A DNA stretch of 64,000 nt from Candidatus Bathyarchaeota archaeon. GTDB lineage: Archaea > Thermoproteota > Bathyarchaeia > 40CM-2-53-6 > RBG-13-38-9. Positions 2,248 through 56,261 of the stretch are shown piece after piece. The position numbers and the translations under genes are program-made. The number at the start of each line of letters is the position of its first letter. Within the stretch, counting starts at the first letter, position 1. Location: NCBI GenBank assembly GCA_963807605.1, contig CAWECG010000004.1:512001-576000 (forward strand), given 5' to 3'. The notes below the pieces were generated by a model, which was not told the DNA's origin, did not search any database, and was given only the letters and a program-made list of their open reading frames with translations.

Positions 2248-3251
2248 TTCCCAGCTTCCTCCTCGTCGACATCTTCTATCCCGTTCTCCGTGATCTTGAA
2301 GAGTCTCTCACCCTCTGGCAGGTAGGGGCTGGAGACGAGTCTTGCGATTCTGACGGGGCCGCTGGCTGTCCTGCGTAAGAAGATCCTTGTGTGGCTTGTG
2401 TGTGCAACTATATGTCCGCCAACAGCCTCAACGGCCATGGCGAAGAAAGCATCTGGCCTTGACATCACTTGATTTGTTACTACGGCCACTGCGTTGAAGG
2501 CCCTTGCCAGTCTCGAGAGTCTGTGCATATGTTTGTTTATCTTTTGCTGTCTCTCAGCCAGCATTTCCCTTCCCAGATACTCGCTTCGGAAGTGGGCTGT
2601 CAATGAGTCTATTATTATGAGGCGGATGTTGTTCTGTTTTATTATTTGGTCAGCCTTCTCGAGGAGAAGTATTTGGTGGTCGCTATTGTATGCTTCTGAG
2701 TAGATTATGTTCTTTGCGACAGTCTCCGGCTCCATACCAAGGTGTTTGGACATTCGCACTATCCATTCGGGTCTGAAGGTCTGTTCTGTATCTATGTAGA
2801 GTGCTCCTCCATTCAGGCCTCCTTGGTCAACCGGCTTCTGAACATTGACGCAGAGCTGGTGGCACAATATTGATTTACCGACACCATATTGCCCATAGAA
2901 CTCAGTGATCGTCATGCTCTCCAAGCCGCCACCTACCAGTTCATCAATAGTCTTACTTCCTGAGCTGAGCCGCAGTAGATTCTCTCGCATCTTTATGAGT
3001 TCATTTGCCGGTATGAAGGATATTGAAATGCTATCTCGTGCTTGAGAGATTATCTTGGCTGCCTGCTTCTCACTTATTCCCACTGGGACTAGCTCTTTCA
3101 CAGTGGCGGTTGCCAGAGACTCGATAGTCTGGTATCCTAGCTCTCTTAGTTTGTCTGCGGTGGCAGGTCCGACTCCTCCAAGATCTTCTATCGAATCGAA
3201 CTTTTGCTTGGTCTCCTCAGTGACCTCATTTGCGCTTTTCTTGGCAGGCAG
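2244..3251 (-). CDS. radA: DNA repair and recombination protein RadA
   Basis: Walker A GQYGVGKS, YIDTEQTF, DSLTAHFRSE, VGGHIVAH. The frame extends upstream of 3101 through the HhH (IEDLGGVGPATADKL) to CTG 3251, with SD GAGGTGA 7 nt upstream. Confidence 0.96.
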   Translation of the reverse strand: MPAKKSANEVTEETKQKFDSIEDLGGVGPATADKLRELGYQTIESLATATVKELVPVGISEKQAAKIISQARDSISISFIPANELIKMRENLLRLSSGSKTIDELVGGGLESMTITEFYGQYGVGKSILCHQLCVNVQKPVDQGGLNGGALYIDTEQTFRPEWIVRMSKHLGMEPETVAKNIIYSEAYNSDHQILLLEKADQIIKQNNIRLIIIDSLTAHFRSEYLGREMLAERQQKINKHMHRLSRLARAFNAVAVVTNQVMSRPDAFFAMAVEAVGGHIVAHTSHTRIFLRRTASGPVRIARLVSSPYLPEGERLFKITENGIEDVDEEEAGK

Positions 3252-46372: not shown

Positions 46373-46846
46373 TTAGGCTACGTATTCGCTGAGGGATTTC
46401 TGTTTGAATTGTAGGTAGATGTCGTGGTCCACGGCTTTCCAGTGTTTCCTCTGGCTGTGTTCAAGGTAGTACCTGATGGCTTCATTCGTGGTGGCGCCGA
46501 CTGAGCGGTAGAAGTAGCCTGCTGTCCAGAAGGCGTCACCCCAAAGCTTCGCCCTGACCCTGCTCCAGCATTTCTGGCGGATCCGCCTTGAACTGGCGCC
46601 TTTCAGGAAGCGTGCCAGCTCCGAGACGGCCAGATTCTTGCATGCACCCACGAATATGGGGGCATAGTCTGGACTAAACTCTATGGCGTGAACCGCAAAA
46701 CCATATCTAGCCGCTGTCTCGCGGAAGCTATCCTCGCAGGCCCTTTTCACCTCGCCATCGCGGAATATGTCGCGCCTGTACTTGGGTGTGAACTGCAGGT
46801 GGAAGTTAGCCTCGCCGAGGCTGTGTGCTGACCTGACCAACTCCAT
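46373..46846 (-). CDS. tnpA: IS200/IS605 Y1 transposase TnpA with degenerate HUH motif
   Basis: H..F.PKYRR, LKG.SSR, LW...FW..GYF..SVG, Y...Q. HUH reads DYAPIF. ATG 46846 follows GGAGGTG. Confidence 0.9.
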   Translation of the reverse strand: MELVRSAHSLGEANFHLQFTPKYRRDIFRDGEVKRACEDSFRETAARYGFAVHAIEFSPDYAPIFVGACKNLAVSELARFLKGASSRRIRQKCWSRVRAKLWGDAFWTAGYFYRSVGATTNEAIRYYLEHSQRKHWKAVDHDIYLQFKQKSLSEYVA

Positions 46847-48568: not shown

Positions 48569-49914
48569 GTGAACTCACCCACTCCTAAAGGGTGTGGGCT
48601 TCTCCCCTTGCGGATAGAGAAGTTCCTGCTTCAGCGACGAAGCATGCCCACCAATAATGGTGGGTGGAGGCTTCATCTCCACAGGCGTGTATTCGGATGG
48701 TTCCCACCCTATTTTTTCCAGTCCTAAACGCCTTATATTGAGTGATGCATTGAAGTCCCTATCAATATTTAGCCCACAATGGGGGCACTTGTGTATCCTC
48801 ACTGCAAGAGTCTTAGGAACCTTAGCGCCACATCCACTGCAATCCTGGCTGGTGTTCTGGGATGGTACTTGGATTCGTAGTTTACAGGCGGTTTCAGCCT
48901 TGTACCCTACCATCATTCCAAATCTTCCCCATGAAGCATCAGCCATATTCTTGGCATTAGGGATCCCCTGCATCAAATCCTGAATATTCAGATCTTCCAT
49001 GCAGATTACATCGTGTTTGTCAACGTAGTATCTTGAGAGTTTGTGCAGGAAGTCATTCCTGCAATTTGTTATGTCCTCATGGATTGATGCAACCTTGACC
49101 TTCTGCTTCATCCTGTTTCTTGATCCCTTCTTCTTTCTTGATAGCTGCCTTTGCTCTCTTTGGAGTCTCTTCAGTTTTTTGTCGATGTTATGCGGGTGAG
49201 GGGTCACTCTTCCATTAGAATCGTAGGCATAGTTTATTATGCCAACATCTACCCCAACAGTTTTGCTTCTGTCCGCTGGCTCAGTATTTATCGGATGGTC
49301 GTATTCAATGGAGGTTATTGCATACCAATTGTTGTTTGCAGAATGTTTGATGGTAACCTGTTTGATCTCACCATCAATCTCTCTATGCAGCCGTATTGGG
49401 ATGTCTCCTATCTTGCTAAGGTGGAGTAATCCCATCTGTCGTATGTGCTTTGCACCATGCTTGATTGAGAATCCAGATTGGTTGTAGATGAAGGCCTTGA
49501 ACCATTCACGTCCCTTGAATCTTAGTCTCCCAACCTTCCTGCCTTTCTTCTTCATCTGTGAGAGTGCCCTGAGATTGGAGTACAGTTGGTAGAGGACGTA
49601 TTGCCGTGTCTTTGAGTGTAGCTTCTCAAGCTCAGGCTTGTATCTGCATAGGGCAGGGATCATCTCTTGTAGAAGTATCCTGTTTGGCACCTTTACACTG
49701 CACCTAACTATTCCCAAGAAGTAGTTGTAGAGCCACCGGCAAAGCTCAAGGATTGCAGACATCTCCTCCTCTTGTTCCCTTGTTGGGTAAAGCCTATAGC
49801 GCACTGAAGACTGCATTGTACTCACCATATTTTTTGTAAACTCCGCTTATAATGCTGATGCCAGTTCGCTTTCATCCCAACCCTAAAGGGTGTGGGATTT
49901 CCCGCTCACCTTTT
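48569..49914 (-). mobile_element. tnpB element T6 inserted in the cofC 3' end
   Basis: Target TTAA (49915-49918); AAAT-hairpin left end; GAAG-hairpin-TCAC right end. Confidence 0.88.
48575..49828 (-). CDS. tnpB: RNA-guided endonuclease TnpB (intact)
   Basis: GVDVG, MEDL, DRDFNA, zinc ribbon. Confidence 0.94.
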   Translation of the reverse strand: MVSTMQSSVRYRLYPTREQEEEMSAILELCRWLYNYFLGIVRCSVKVPNRILLQEMIPALCRYKPELEKLHSKTRQYVLYQLYSNLRALSQMKKKGRKVGRLRFKGREWFKAFIYNQSGFSIKHGAKHIRQMGLLHLSKIGDIPIRLHREIDGEIKQVTIKHSANNNWYAITSIEYDHPINTEPADRSKTVGVDVGIINYAYDSNGRVTPHPHNIDKKLKRLQREQRQLSRKKKGSRNRMKQKVKVASIHEDITNCRNDFLHKLSRYYVDKHDVICMEDLNIQDLMQGIPNAKNMADASWGRFGMMVGYKAETACKLRIQVPSQNTSQDCSGCGAKVPKTLAVRIHKCPHCGLNIDRDFNASLNIRRLGLEKIGWEPSEYTPVEMKPPPTIIGGHASSLKQELLYPQGEKPTPFRSG

Positions 49915-51459: not shown

Positions 51460-52803
51460 GTGAACTTACCCACCCCTAAAGGGTGTGGGCTTCTCCCCTT
51501 GCGGATAGAGAAGTTCCTGCTTCAGCGACGAAACATGCCCACCAATGGTGGGTAGAGGCTTCATCTCCACAGGCGTGTATTCGGATGGTTCCCCCCCTAT
51601 TTTTTCCAGTCCTAAACGCCTTATATTGAGTGATGCATTGAAGTCCCTATCAATATTTAGCCTACAATGGGGACACTTGTGTATCCTCACTGCAAGAGTC
51701 TTAGGAACCTTAGCGCCACATCCACTGCAATCCTGGCTGGTGTTCTGGGGCGGTACTTGGATTCGTAGTTTACAGGCGGTTTCAGCCTTGTACCCCACCA
51801 TCATTCCAAATCTTCCCCATGAAGCATCAGCCATATTCTTGGCATTAGGGATCCCCTGCATCAAATCCTGAATATTCAGAATCTTCCATGCAGATTACAT
51901 CGTGTTTGTCAACGTAGTATCTTGAGAGTTTGTGTAAGAAGTCATTTCTGCAATTTGTTATGTTCTCATGGATTGATGCAACCTTGACCTTCTGTTTCAT
52001 CCTGTTTCTTGATTCCTTCTTCTTTCTTGATAGCTGCCTTTGCTCTTTTTGGAGTCTCTTCAGTTTTTTGTCGATGTTATGCGGGTGAGGGGTCACTCTT
52101 CCATTAGAATCGTAGGCATAGTTTATTATGCCAACATCTATCCCAACAGTTTTGCTTCTGTCCGCTGGCTGAGTATTTATCGGATGGTCATATTCGATGG
52201 AGGTTATTGCATACCACTTGCCGTTCGCAGACCGCTTGATAATGATCTGTTTGACTTCGCCCTCAACCTTCCTATGCAGCCGTATTGGGATGTCTCCTAT
52301 CTTGCTGAGGTGGAGCAATCCCATCTGTCGTATGTGCTTTGCACCATGCTTGATTGAGAATCCAGATTGGTTGTAGATGAAGGCCTTGAACCATCCACGT
52401 CCCTTGAATCTTAGTCTCCCAACCTTCCTGCCTTTCTTCTTCATCTGTGAGAGTGCCCTGAGATTGGAGTACAGTTGGTAGAGGACGTATTGCCGTGTCT
52501 TTGAGTGTAGCTTCTCAAGCTCAGGCTTGTATCTGCATAGGGCAGGGATCATCTCTTGTAGAAGTATCCTGTTTGGCACCTTTACACTGCACCTAACTAT
52601 TCCCAAGAAGTAGTTGTAGAGCCACCGGCAAAGCTCAAGGATTGCAGACATCTCCTCCTCTTGTTCCCTTGTTGGGTAAAGCCTACAGCGCACTGAAGAC
52701 TGCATTGTACTCACCATATTTTTTGTAAACTCCGCTTATAATGCTGATACCAGTTCGCTTTCATCCCACCCCTAAAGGGTGTAGGATTTCCCGCTCACCT
52801 TTT
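51460..52803 (-). mobile_element. tnpB element T7 (sibling of T6)
   Basis: Target TTAA (52804-52807); ends as in T6. Confidence 0.88.
51466..52717 (-). pseudogene. tnpB: Frameshifted tnpB
   Basis: One extra base at ~51881, right after the RuvC-II ED. Confidence 0.88.
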
Positions 52804-52873
52804 TTAAGGTGTAGCTGAAGACACGCTTCGGCGGCTCAAAATCTTCGCAACACTCAATGAGATTAAGTGTGGG

Positions 52874-54694
52874 CTATTCCACTGTAACGGACTTCGCCAA
52901 GTTTCTAGGCTTGTCTGGATCACAACCCCTTTCAACAGCCATCCAATAGGCGAATAGTTGCAACGGTATGACATACACCAAAGGTGTAAGAAGACTCATA
53001 ATAGAGACTGGAATCTCAATAGTATCGTCGAGTATCTCTCTCAGCTTATCGTCGTCCCCGTCGATCACGCCGATGACCGACGCATTTCGAGCCTTCATCT
53101 CCATGATGTTTCCAATAATCTTATGATGCGTCGCGTCTTTTGGAGCGATGAAGATTATCGGGTATTGTGGCTCAACAACAGCGATGAAGCCGTGCTTGCT
53201 CTCACCCGCCGGATACGAAAGAGAAGGAATATACGTCAGCTCAAGAAGCTTCAGCCTCGACTCCAAGGCGGTGGTTACATTTATACCCCGTGCCAAGAAA
53301 CAGAAACTCAATCTATCTTTATACTTCTTCGCCAACTCACGAACCCTGGGTTCTGTCAACAGGGCCTTCTCCATTGCTGTTGGTACGTCCCGGAGGCTTC
53401 TCTTGAGCTTCGCCAATTCTTCATCGGAGAGTGTCTTCCGCTTCTCAGCTAGGACAAGGGCAAGATTTGTCAGAACTGAGACTTGAGACGTGAAGGTCTT
53501 GGTTGCGGCAACACCCACCTCAGGCCCCGAATTCTGACCTATGTAAACCTCGGAGAGCCTTGTAAGAGTCGAAGCCATAACATTCGTGATGCCGAGTATG
53601 GAGGCGCCCATCTTCTTTGCGACACGTACGGCTTCAAGTGTGTCTGCAGTCTCACCAGATTGGCTAACCGCCAAGATGACCGAATGCTCATCAACTGTAT
53701 GACCGTACTGCTCAGTAAACTCAGAAGCGATCACAGGCTGCGTGCGGAGTCCCGCCAACTTAGTGAACAGATAAGACGCCGCGAGACAGGCATGATAAGA
53801 CGTGCCGCAAGCAAGCAGAAATACTTGCTTGGCCTTGTCTAACTTGGACGCCATCAACCCATAATATATCGGCTGTATCCTTAAGACGTTCCTGATTGCT
53901 GAGGGTTGCTCATGAATCTCTTTAATCATGAAATGCCTATACCCAGCTTTTGTTGCATCTTCAGCACTCCAGGTGATCTCTAGGACTTCTCGTTCCAGCT
54001 CTTGGCCAGTCTTGAGATTAGTCAGCCTAACTCTGTCTGATTCAAGGACAGCAAGATCTTCTTCTTCTAAGACAATGGCTCTTCTAGTAAGGGGCAAGAA
54101 GGCGGAGATATCTGACGCACAATACTTAGCAGAGCTTCCGAGTCCGATTACAAGTGGGCTCTCCTTTTTGACACAGACGATTACGTCAGGTTGGGCGGTT
54201 GAGATTGCCGCAATTGCGTATGAGCCCTCTAGCCGTTTGGCGGCAAGCCTTACCGCCTCTACAAAATCTTCGCCGTCTGCCAGATACTCTTCAACAAGAT
54301 GAGGGATAACTTCAGTGTCTGTCCTCGATCTGAATACGTGGTTTCTTCCCTCAAGCTCCTTCCTCAGCTCTAGAAAATTCTCTATTATTCCATTATGTAC
54401 GACCGCAACATCGAACTTACAGCTGTAATGGGGGTGGGCATTCTCCATTGAGGGCATACCATGCGTAGCCCATCTGGTGTGGCCCACACCAACGCTTCCG
54501 TCCATCTCATCTAACTGCAGCTTCAGATTTACTTCTTCGATCGACCCACGGTCCTTCTTCGTCTCCAAACCCTTGTTCGAGACCGTGCTAATACCTACTG
54601 AGTCGTAGCCTCTGTACTCAAGACGCTTTAATGCGCTATGTATGATCGGTGCGGCTCTGTCTTCCTTCAAGACAACTCCGAAAATGCCACACAA
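52874..54694 (-). CDS. glmS: Glutamine--fructose-6-phosphate aminotransferase
   Basis: MCGI, EYRGYDS, HTRWATHG, SQSGET, PRNLAKSVTVE. Confidence 0.97.
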   Translation of the reverse strand: MCGIFGVVLKEDRAAPIIHSALKRLEYRGYDSVGISTVSNKGLETKKDRGSIEEVNLKLQLDEMDGSVGVGHTRWATHGMPSMENAHPHYSCKFDVAVVHNGIIENFLELRKELEGRNHVFRSRTDTEVIPHLVEEYLADGEDFVEAVRLAAKRLEGSYAIAAISTAQPDVIVCVKKESPLVIGLGSSAKYCASDISAFLPLTRRAIVLEEEDLAVLESDRVRLTNLKTGQELEREVLEITWSAEDATKAGYRHFMIKEIHEQPSAIRNVLRIQPIYYGLMASKLDKAKQVFLLACGTSYHACLAASYLFTKLAGLRTQPVIASEFTEQYGHTVDEHSVILAVSQSGETADTLEAVRVAKKMGASILGITNVMASTLTRLSEVYIGQNSGPEVGVAATKTFTSQVSVLTNLALVLAEKRKTLSDEELAKLKRSLRDVPTAMEKALLTEPRVRELAKKYKDRLSFCFLARGINVTTALESRLKLLELTYIPSLSYPAGESKHGFIAVVEPQYPIIFIAPKDATHHKIIGNIMEMKARNASVIGVIDGDDDKLREILDDTIEIPVSIMSLLTPLVYVIPLQLFAYWMAVERGCDPDKPRNLAKSVTVE

Positions 54695-54718
54695 TCTACC
54701 CGATCCTCCCTGATTTCA

Positions 54719-55774
54719 TCAAGATCCCCCAAGGAAACCCACACCATTTATGGGTGGGAGGAATTGGGGGGCCTCGTACCTACTGAATATTTGCTGATTG
54801 AAAAGTCGCTTGCACTCTTCTAGTTTCGCAGTCTGTGTAAAACGTTTGTTTGTCAGACTAAATCTATGCAGTGATAGGCCATCCATGAATCCTCCAACTC
54901 TAGCAAGTCTGTTCTGATACTGTACTACGTCACCTTTCCTAAATGGTGGAATACTCCATGAACCACCGTACCTTCTGCGGATGTCACCCTTGTCAGGTTC
55001 AAGCCTGTGGAGCTGACGCCTAGTGTACTCGAAGCGTTTCCATACCCAGAACTCAGGTGGGTAGGAATTTTCACAGCTTAACTCTGCACACCCAATAGCG
55101 ATAGCATCTACAGCATGGGAATCCCAAGTTAGACTGTTCTTCTTACTATTCTTTGGTAATCTAAATTTCTCTCTATACTTGGCAGTCTCAACGCCAGTAC
55201 AGAGTACAAGTTCTCCCTTCTCCTTCAAGTGTTGATAATATCTTGCTTTGCCAATCTCAACGGTGCTGAAATGTTTACCCCATCTCTTCTTGTAGTGGTT
55301 GAACCGAACATCTTCCACTACAAATCGGCTGATTGGATAGATTTTGCATAATTCGTCCGCAGCCCCAATACGGAAGTCTACTTTCGCTTTCTGGCTTGGA
55401 GCAATCCAGCCATCAGGCCTACGTCTATTATCAAAACGTTTAGCCCTTCTAGGAGTGTTCCTGTACCGTCTTGCTCTGCGCATTTCTCTACGCTGTTCAA
55501 GTTTCTTAACAATTCTTGATGGAAGCACAAGCATACCACTTGTTAAGACAACCTCTTTAGAAACTACTGCCACTCCATCCCATTTACTCCCCGGATCAAC
55601 GGCAAGGCAAATTGGTTGTATTTCAGTGCCAACTTGTCTTAGCATTTGTATGTAGAACTGCCCAAGTTTGTTCCAATGTTTCTCCGCTAATCCATCTTTG
55701 ATTAACTTTCTAGCTCTCTGAGGAGTTGTAGGCATCAATGGTTTCCCATTAACGCCCACAACAGGTATTCTCAG
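54719..55774 (-). CDS. isrB: IsrB (HNH-less IscB relative; RNA-guided nickase), ~351 aa
   Basis: GKPLMP, DPGSK, RRxRR bridge helix, VEDV, H.VDA; no HNH or zinc motif. Likely start CTG 55774 (LRIPVV) downstream of AAGGAGG; the ORF-track extension is the omega-RNA. Confidence 0.88.
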   Translation of the reverse strand: MRIPVVGVNGKPLMPTTPQRARKLIKDGLAEKHWNKLGQFYIQMLRQVGTEIQPICLAVDPGSKWDGVAVVSKEVVLTSGMLVLPSRIVKKLEQRREMRRARRYRNTPRRAKRFDNRRRPDGWIAPSQKAKVDFRIGAADELCKIYPISRFVVEDVRFNHYKKRWGKHFSTVEIGKARYYQHLKEKGELVLCTGVETAKYREKFRLPKNSKKNSLTWDSHAVDAIAIGCAELSCENSYPPEFWVWKRFEYTRRQLHRLEPDKGDIRRRYGGSWSIPPFRKGDVVQYQNRLARVGGFMDGLSLHRFSLTNKRFTQTAKLEECKRLFNQQIFSRYEAPQFLPPINGVGFLGGS

Positions 55775-56021
55775 AGCTGGCGATAAACACCCTCCTTTCG
55801 GAGTTTTGTGACTTTCGACGTTGCATGGAAGGCTTAGGCCGCCAATTTTGGTGACCATGCCATTGAGTGGTTCTGGCGAAGAGGGTAGAACTAGGTCTCG
55901 CATTCTACCGTTCTTGTAGCCTTTCACGCCGCTAACCCGACCATGATGGCCGGGCCATCTAGTCAAAGTTTGCATCAATACCACCATTTCAAGCCCACGG
56001 TTTTAACCGTGGGTCCTTGAC
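54720..56021. mobile_element. IS200/IS605-superfamily isrB element
   Basis: + strand: target TCAT | GAAA-hairpin left end ... CAAG-hairpin-TGAC right end. Confidence 0.87.
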
Positions 56022-56041
56022 TGTCTTGATTTGTTCCTTAT
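55795..56041 (-). ncRNA. IsrB omega-RNA scaffold plus 5' guide from the flank
   Basis: Begins GTCAA..CCCACGG TTAAAA CCGTGGG CTTG..TTGACTAGA..CCTAGT..CTCT..GTCGA, the usual omega-RNA layout upstream of a PLMP ORF. Confidence 0.75.
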
Positions 56042-56261
56042 CTTGGGGATCCGTTACGGAATATCAGGAATCGCTTCGATAGATTAATATATCTCGGACA
56101 GAAACGGAGTTTCCAATTCACATAGCAGGCGAAGAATATGGGTGTCCACTTTTTCGGTGATGGCGTTTACACAGGTTGTTACACTAGGCGTACCTGCCCA
56201 GTCGCCAACGATTCCTAACAAATGGTCTTTTAAGTGTACCAGACATCTAGAAGCAAGTAGC

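Follow-up and report, generated by a model that had tools for sequence, protein, structure and literature searches.

Is the insertion in the glmS leader of this archaeal genome a working, mobile IsrB system that takes both its guide and its transcription from the host, and where does translation of its nuclease begin? The insertion lies in a window of 64,000 nucleotides (the whole stretch of DNA analyzed), from the genome (G000) of a Bathyarchaeia-type archaeon, 2.65 Mb in five contigs with an archaeal rRNA operon. We consider it highly probable that the locus is a non-autonomous ISC1/IsrB element that inserted 5′ of an ATGA sequence in the glmS leader without target duplication and that acts by the mechanism set out below. 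The features on which this reading is built are collected in Table 1; those listed by the first-pass annotation were all recovered at the coordinates given there.

Table 1. Features of the insertion and its surroundings, in window coordinates.
Feature	Positions	Strand	Description
Promoter box, AT-rich (very probable)	56076-56093	-	GATATATTAATCTATCGA; TATA-like core 56083-56092; host sequence, outside the element
Predicted 20-nt guide	56022-56041	-	ATAAGGAACAAATCAAGACA; host flank adjoining the 5′ side of the scaffold
Element	54720-56021	-	1,302 bp; 5′-GTCA...TTG-3′, then ATGA
Omega-RNA scaffold	55760-56021	-	Starts GTCAAGG at 56021; HEARO match 55803-56021
isrB ORF	54719-55987	-	422 aa from ATG 55987; 418 aa from ATG 55975; stop TGA 54721-54719
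3′ transposon end	54720-54758	-	Imperfect hairpin CCCAC-CCATAAATGGT-GTGGG (54738-54758) plus 18 nt TTTCCTTGGGGGATCTTG to the cleavage point
Target site/TAM	54716-54719	-	ATGA; host sequence directly 3′ of the element
glmS	52874-54694	-	TTG start 54694; SD GGGAGG 54705-54710; Pfam GATase_6/7 and two SIS domains

The protein encoded by the element is IsrB, an HNH-less relative of IscB. The first-pass annotation had described a PLMP and RuvC protein without HNH, and the IscB/IsrB profile search that it proposed agrees: RRXRR (PF14239) was the sole Pfam match (E 1.5e-45, RRXRR positions 1-158 matched), the NCBIfam model guided_IscB matched partially, and no HNH family was found in the Pfam search at E <= 0.01. 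The closest solved structure in a sequence search was DtIsrB (PDB 8DMB, E 3.8e-91), with the matching stretch beginning at 55786 and comprising 355 aa. In a family alignment of 54 homologues, no variation was seen in the PLMP motif (P83-L84-M85-P86), which lies in a region aligned with DtIsrB residues 1-59, or in the RuvC residues D131 (AVDPGSK), E225 (VVEDV) and H291/D294 (SHAVDA). These catalytic residues are colinear with those of DtIsrB. RuvC-II (E225) and RuvC-III (H291) are ~65 residues apart, and this segment aligns without gaps to the DtIsrB HNH-linker region. An AlphaFold model built with the 54 homologues returned 8dmb_P as the top Foldseek match (E 1.2e-34, TM 0.72), with IscB structures next and RuvC after them; identity to DtIsrB is 44% over the 343-column Foldseek alignment. 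By analogy with DtIsrB, the protein is predicted to act as a RuvC-only nickase. The first-pass proposal of a candidate new nickase thus holds as a reasonable candidacy, whereas the newness is modest, given 44% identity to DtIsrB and the earlier description of archaeal IsrB with insertion between N and ATGA.

The C-terminal part of the protein is less easily compared by sequence. DtIsrB reads its TAM through R323 and Q326, located in its C-terminal ~60 aa (PMC9581776). A phmmer search of the last 68 aa of our protein against PDB sequences gave no match, and the 54-sequence profile ceases to align at DtIsrB residue ~292, so that the last ~60 aa have no sequence alignment to DtIsrB. The AlphaFold model has a beta-rich C-terminal domain, and the C-terminal part contains two R-x-x-Q-like motifs, R382/Q385 and R394/N397-Q398, either of which may be the counterpart of R323/Q326. 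From the flanks of the element only, we infer that the IsrB protein would read the TAM.

We delimited the element by comparing four copies, A to D. Homology to copy B (C3:1149539-1150845, 81% nt identity) begins exactly at 56021 with GTCA and ends after TTG ATGA A at 54715. Copy C, the third in the genome, encodes a protein that is only 39% identical, and copy D lies in the same-genus genome G001. All four start with GTCA(A/G) and end with TTG followed by ATGA, and similarity ceases on either side. We also collected 80 metagenome loci, which represent 54 distinct insertion sites. Upstream of GTCA, neither the sites nor the copies resemble one another in sequence. Directly after the element, 50 of the 54 sites have ATGA, and the other four have GTGA, ACGA, ATGG and ATAA. 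The bases preceding ATGA vary by subfamily, and those after it also vary. The 3′ end, which doubles as coding sequence for the IsrB C-terminal tail, is 91-97% identical in copies A-D, the divergent copy C included, and is kept in ~50 metagenome loci. Both ends named in the first-pass annotation are thus the same limits found in the four copies and in ~50 metagenome loci. Its reading of the isrB stop also held, the TGA being composed of the element's TG and the A of the target ATGA. The element has subterminal hairpins (55994-56013 and 54738-54758) and neither inverted terminal repeats nor a target-site duplication. We conclude that it is a non-autonomous member of the IS200/IS605 superfamily, of the ISC1/IsrB type. 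A truncated omega-RNA remnant of the family was observed at C2:20072-20119, and an internally deleted family copy in G001.

The same limits are seen where the element is absent. A search of related glmS leaders, set beforehand as a refuting test of the predicted empty junction (CA directly followed by ATGA), found that junction in two sister-strain metagenome contigs, L124 and L125, identified through GlmS proteins 94-95% identical to ours (glmS 92.9% identical at the nucleotide level). In both contigs the aspartate kinase gene and glmS are 185 nt apart with no element between them, and the junction reads GGGAACAAACTAGA(A/G)CA joined directly to ATGAAAC, with a single ATGA. Both also carry 19 nt beyond the G000 sequence directly after ATGA. 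Since strains with 93% identical glmS are without the element, it was gained or lost after the strains diverged. The leaders of same-genus G001 and of four other genera (G002, G006, G008 and G014) likewise have no element, and in these the surroundings of the junction are too diverged to show it. A second empty site corresponds to copy D: its counterpart at G000:C3 ~465.56 kb reads GGCTGAGTTG ATGAAGAC, again with one ATGA.

The empty sites also bear on the guide. In L124 and L125 the predicted guide is contiguous with ATGA, as expected from the earlier claim that the 20-nt flank is a guide followed by an ATGA TAM, and in the occupied site the guide match is followed by GTCA instead. Elsewhere in the genome, no sequence matches the guide in full. 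Its length of 20 nt was adopted from DtIsrB (PMC9581776).

An omega-RNA had been predicted upstream of isrB, and a covariance-model match was found there: cmscan aligned the full Rfam HEARO model (RF02033, positions 1-211) to the minus strand with E 2.3e-11 and 61.6 bits, a score that falls short of the Rfam gathering score of 83. Seven related loci scored against the same model gave 51-90 bits, and copy C alone reached the gathering score, with 90.2 bits. The HEARO model was built mostly from IscB-type RNAs. RNAalifold on 47 aligned scaffolds from genome and metagenome loci predicted 60 pairs, 42 of which show compensatory double changes, and all predicted helices are retained in the element. 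This covariation indicates that the omega-RNA fold is real and conserved. The first scaffold hairpin, CCCACGG-TTAAAA-CCGTGGG (55994-56013), also serves as the transposon-end hairpin. For the 3′ limit, at ~55760, the 262-nt DtIsrB scaffold served as the model. Relative to HEARO, the clade shares the full-length model match, the 5′ stem, the nexus and the helices, and differs in having ~11 nt extra in the 5′ stem region, with the isrB ATG inside, and 3′ helices beyond the model.

We next consider where IsrB translation begins. The codon aligned with DtIsrB Met1 is TTA here (55784-55786), ATA in copy B and ATC in most of the clade, and no canonical start codon adjoins PLMP in this element. The frame instead continues upstream, so that the omega-RNA scaffold codes for IsrB residues 1-67. 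In most of 54 scorable related loci the frame is likewise free of stops from an ATG ~80 codons before PLMP, with no PLMP-proximal ATG, whereas the other two frames of the scaffold contain means of 6.2 and 4.5 stops across these loci. Where a locus does have an ATG of its own 11-14 codons ahead of PLMP, the frame contains 2-6 stops, L084 being the single exception. Among 17 indel-free scaffolds of the open type, the isrB frame contains 0 stops and the two alternative frames 87 and 60; column shuffles of these scaffolds, which ignore relatedness, gave 5.9 in-frame stops and never reached 0 in 1000 trials. By hand tally, limited to the core 70-83% clade, 11 of the ~13 distinct indels in the scaffold have lengths divisible by 3. 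Scaffold diversity is flat over codon positions, the N-terminal extension has a dN/dS of 0.70 relative to copy B, and residues 1-67 have an AlphaFold pLDDT below 30. We conclude that selection acts only on the openness of the frame and not on the sequence of the leader peptide. Within the 5′ stem region, the ATG falls in a segment that DtIsrB does not need for nicking, and about half of the best 120 of more than 1,900 homologues are annotated with this N-terminal extension.

These observations suggest that IsrB is probably translated from an ATG inside the omega-RNA, at 55987 or 55975. The earlier description of the gene as apparently intact stands in that the frame is uninterrupted, and it holds only with a start at one of these codons. 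Alternatively, IsrB could be translated from a non-AUG codon at PLMP behind the conserved GGAGG at 55791-55795, with the omega-RNA left untranslated. The SD-like GGAGG/GGGGAG 4-6 nt before the codon aligned with DtIsrB Met1 would suit such a start, and the flat codon-position diversity, the dN/dS of 0.7 and the lack of a predicted fold for the leader are what would be seen if the peptide sequence is not under selection. However, the aligned codon, TTA, is no start codon in table 11, and a non-AUG start would leave unexplained the stop-free frame, the indels in multiples of 3 and the finding that in-frame stops occur mostly in loci with a proximal ATG of their own. We regard this alternative as unlikely.

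Taking the start inside the omega-RNA further, we propose that in this clade the omega-RNA gene is at the same time the first ~67 codons of isrB, with its AUG placed in a loop at the periphery of the 5′ stem region, the counterpart of DtIsrB SL1. One transcript could then serve as mRNA or as guide RNA, and its ribosomes might be handed on to the host gene. The 3′ end of the element has an SD-like GGGGGAT/GAGGTGAT tract, which is followed by the stop codon overlapping the target ATG. We judge this proposal to be evenly poised between right and wrong. If true, a transcript used either as mRNA or as IsrB-bound guide RNA would amount to built-in autoregulation. We found no published description of a translated omega-RNA in a literature search, and translation of the omega-RNA across the clade is the sole feature of the locus able to change the understanding of these systems.

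We then considered if the element is still active. Over the IsrB core (codons 68-400, 333 codons), comparison with copy B gave a dN/dS of 0.09 at a dS of 1.1, and isrB is thus under strong purifying selection. The genome encodes four TnpA-like ORFs (PF01797) of one family. The ORF at C5:72411 is the only one of the four in which HUH and the Tyr region are kept; the ORF at window positions 46457-46810 is HUH-dead, and the remaining two are interrupted by a stop and truncated, respectively. A short-word BLAST of the genome with both ends turned up no element that combines a tnpA with these ends. There is also no sign of recent transposition within the genome, given that even the closest copy shares just 81% identity.

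An immobile relic, inserted once and persisting since its removal is not selected, with IsrB and omega-RNA both inactive, would be in keeping with several of these results: no second copy is near-identical to the element (the best is 81% nt identical), no element with tnpA shares its ends, most TnpA copies are damaged, the canonical start at the PLMP N-terminus is missing, and the family decays in this lineage, as in the remnant on C2 and the internally deleted copy of G001. Against it stand the low dN/dS of the core together with an uninterrupted frame and invariant catalytic residues, the retention of every predicted scaffold helix, and the element-free sister strains, which point to movement since divergence. 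We therefore consider a relic very unlikely.

The remaining question is how the element is transcribed. The first-pass annotation had placed the element between an AT-rich box and the glmS SD, and this placement was confirmed: 55 nt separate the insertion site from the box upstream and 22 nt from the glmS TTG downstream, with the SD of glmS left in place. The box is near-identical in four other genera and in G001, in which glmS has a different upstream neighbor, and is 100% identical in L124 and L125 at the same distance to the junction. Because of this conservation across genera, next to a different neighbor and in sister strains, the box is very probably the glmS promoter, common to the divergent aspartate kinase gene. 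No second full-length glmS was found in the genome by tblastn. Over the 1.4 kb from the box to the glmS start there are no runs of five or more T, a result of little weight as ~0.85 are expected by chance. A search of the final ~400 nt of the element gave no TATA-like motif. Among 36 sites in related loci, the host ORF upstream runs in the direction of the element at 23 and in the opposite direction at 3.

Since the element lies downstream of the conserved box and glmS is single-copy, it is likely that the guide, omega-RNA, isrB and glmS are co-transcribed from the host promoter. Host-driven expression would fit the conserved box, the single-copy glmS, the absence of an oligo-T run and the 23:3 same-strand bias. 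With a TATA box at ~56087, transcription would start ~40 nt before the scaffold, and the guide would thus be longer than 20 nt or trimmed at its 5′ end. A promoter inside the element that drives isrB and glmS, so that the locus makes no guide-bearing RNA, is very unlikely: archaeal promoters are short and easily missed and the first hairpin doubles as a transposase-binding site, such that the fold alone is no proof of expression, but the end of the element is without a TATA-like motif, the upstream host genes show the same-strand bias expected if outside transcription is needed (PMC10055086), and the box is fully conserved in the sister strains at an equal distance to the junction. We also considered that the element might regulate glmS or have been domesticated for it, and dropped this idea, as sister strains and other genera lack the element and the family is plainly mobile.

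We suggest the following mechanism for host-driven expression and movement. Transcription from the host promoter box would proceed through the guide flank, the scaffold and isrB into glmS. IsrB, translated from ATG 55987 or 55975 with the scaffold also encoding a disordered leader of ~67 aa, would bind the scaffold as a RuvC-only nickase, and the flank would steer it to an element-free allele, in which the guide match is followed by ATGA. Such an allele would arise only once TnpA, acting in trans, has excised the element. A nick in the element-free allele could then lead to the element being re-copied by recombination, and the occupied locus would be immune as it has GTCA instead of ATGA after the guide match.

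The locus is among the cleanest natural IsrB loci, with nuclease gene, omega-RNA, guide, TAM, exact empty site and putative host promoter together, and the host gene behind the element is single-copy and presumably essential. It is suited to testing host read-through as the source of OMEGA guide RNAs in an archaeon, and to testing whether 1.3 kb inserted in the leader is tolerated by the host gene. Its practical use is as a model locus for which the empty site is known and the host promoter probable. As an enzyme, the protein is a moderately diverged DtIsrB relative and a reasonable, not exceptional, candidate nickase, from a host that is probably mesophilic or moderately thermophilic.

Much of what is described here has precedent. 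Archaeal ISC elements became known in 2016, and earlier publications already cover the target site, the TAM and the dependence on host transcription; the more than 1,900 database homologues include proteins from Asgard archaea, Hydrothermarchaeota, Methanoperedens and Bathyarchaeia. DtIsrB, from the bacterium Desulfovirgula thermocuniculi, recognizes an NTGA-type TAM that includes ATGA (Hirano et al. 2022, PMC9581776). It shares with our protein the PLMP motif, the split RuvC with a short linker replacing HNH and a C-terminal domain, TAM-interacting in DtIsrB and putatively so here, and is similar in size (353 aa versus 355 aa from the aligned start). The RNA layout is the same as well, with a large scaffold and a 5′ guide, upstream of and overlapping the ORF start. 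In contrast to DtIsrB, the present protein has an archaeal host, no sequence alignment over the last ~60 aa, and no ATG at the Met1 position, its frame extending ~67 codons upstream into the scaffold.

At the level of the transposon, the closest counterparts are the ISC1 elements described by Kapitonov, Makarova and Koonin in 2016 (PMC4810608), in a study that precedes the discovery of omega-RNA and guide. ISC1 transposons, such as ISC1-1_MA of Microcystis aeruginosa, insert between N and ATGA, as verified by empty sites (PMC4810608). Like our element, they are non-autonomous members of the IS200/IS605 superfamily that encode only HNH-less IscB1 (= IsrB), with a 5′-GTCA terminus, subterminal hairpins, no target duplication and the same insertion site. 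ISC1-1_MA differs in belonging to another host domain and in its 3′ terminus, which ends in CG and not in TTG. A further parallel is GstIscB of Geobacillus stearothermophilus, which has TTCAT as its TAM and whose nuclease targets the donor joint (Meers et al. 2023, PMC10055086). The same study reported that genes upstream of IscB are co-oriented with it and explained this by a guide that lies outside the element and requires an outside transcription start. GstIscB differs in having an HNH domain and making double-strand breaks, whereas the present IsrB is expected only to nick, and in having a demonstrated cognate TnpA. The two systems are alike in that the guide lies beyond the transposon end, and the ATGAA found here reverse-complements to TTCAT.

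The IsrB element in the glmS leader carries, within its final 18 nt, a G-rich tract resembling a Shine-Dalgarno (SD) sequence, and among the related elements this tract, which takes the forms GGGGGATC, GGAGGT and GAGGTGAT, is separated by 5-9 nt from the ATG of the target downstream. The duplex energy of the tract with the host anti-SD averages -9.0 kcal/mol, compared with -4.5 for control windows within the elements. The SD-like tract may replace the ribosome-binding site that is displaced by insertion. Its conservation could equally be owed to recognition by TnpA or to the tail of the IsrB protein.

Insertion sites were taken from the 3′ flanks of the related metagenomic loci L033-L112 and of copy D, the IsrB copy in the same-genus genome G001. 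At 17-21 of 50 distinct insertion sites, a long host ORF oriented like the element starts at the ATG of the target ATGA, examples being an ORF with a Rossmann N-terminus at L065 (beginning MRILVTGGAG) and a PIN-type ORF at L093 (beginning MNILDTD). At such sites the isrB stop and the host start overlap as TGATGA. The glmS-leader locus is not a start-codon case, as its ATGA sits within the leader. Copy D (L026, G001:C309), which lacks ~155 nt inside isrB, is inserted precisely at the first codon of an ORF of 253 aa, in a position that resembles an operon junction. In G000, the genome carrying the window, the orthologous position is empty (G000:C3:465383-465566).

The isrB reading frame was also followed upstream across the omega-RNA scaffold. 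In most of the 54 scorable related loci the scaffold is free of in-frame stops, with the open frame beginning at an ATG at scaffold positions 35-37, and scaffold indels among loci L033-L112 have lengths that are multiples of 3. Where a locus has its own PLMP-proximal ATG, 2-6 in-frame stops are found in the scaffold, with L084 as the one exception. Together, the stop-free frame, the indel lengths and the presence of stops where a proximal ATG exists suggest that the guide-RNA gene doubles as coding sequence for a disordered leader.

Elsewhere in G000 we found a truncated IsrB-element remnant, consisting of a 5′ omega-RNA fragment, and four closely related TnpA (Y1_Tnp) ORFs, among which one has an internal TAG and one is truncated at its N-terminus. 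Copy B, the second IsrB copy in G000, is flanked by a ~116-nt repeat (L002:700-815) that occurs at 92-99% identity at 10 or more genomic positions, including two within the window, and is probably the end of an abundant TnpB element family or a miniature derivative.

Coordinates of the features described, in the window unless a contig or locus is named
Feature	Location	Strand	Remark
SD-like G-rich tract	54720-54737	-	final 18 nt of element, which carry the tract; compared across 40 distinct element ends at this position
isrB frame inside omega-RNA scaffold	55784-55987	-	compared with loci L033-L112
omega-RNA 5′ fragment, ~48 nt (GTCTGAGACCCAGGGCTAAAACCATGGGCTTGAAATGG...)	G000:C2:20072-20119	-	followed by unrelated sequence
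TnpA ORF, HUH lost	46457-46810	-	PDYAPIF vs PDHAHIF in other TnpA ORFs
TnpA ORF, HUH kept	G000:C5:72411-72749		C-terminal tail shifted
Remaining two TnpA ORFs	C4:76255-76536; C4:636953-637189
Copy-B-flanking repeat	51460-51572 and 48569-48684	-	at least 8 further places in G000
19-nt difference	54715/54716 junction; L124:~645-665; L125:~2958-2978		sister-strain comparison
Mini-ORF MKSGRIG, 7 codons	54696-54719	-	opens at target ATG
Region 3′ of glmS	52718-52873 and 51845-52717	-	compared with L124/L125

Sister-strain contigs (L124 and L125) carry 19 extra nt (AACATTAGCAGAAGCATAG) immediately after the target ATGA that are missing from G000. Because these nucleotides adjoin the ATGA, the change abuts the TAM, whether it arose by deletion in G000 or by insertion in the sister strains. 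The mini-ORF in the G000 leader, whose sister-strain counterpart has only 3 codons, overruns the glmS SD and ends at a TAG 1 nt upstream of the glmS TTG start, forming a chain in which the isrB stop overlaps the mini-ORF start and the mini-ORF stop adjoins the glmS start. On the other side of the gene, L124 and L125 have cofD and cofC directly downstream of glmS, and G000 has a truncated TnpB-like ORF (OrfB_IS605) of 290 aa just 3′ of it. Therefore, glmS in G000 lies between two different OMEGA-type elements.
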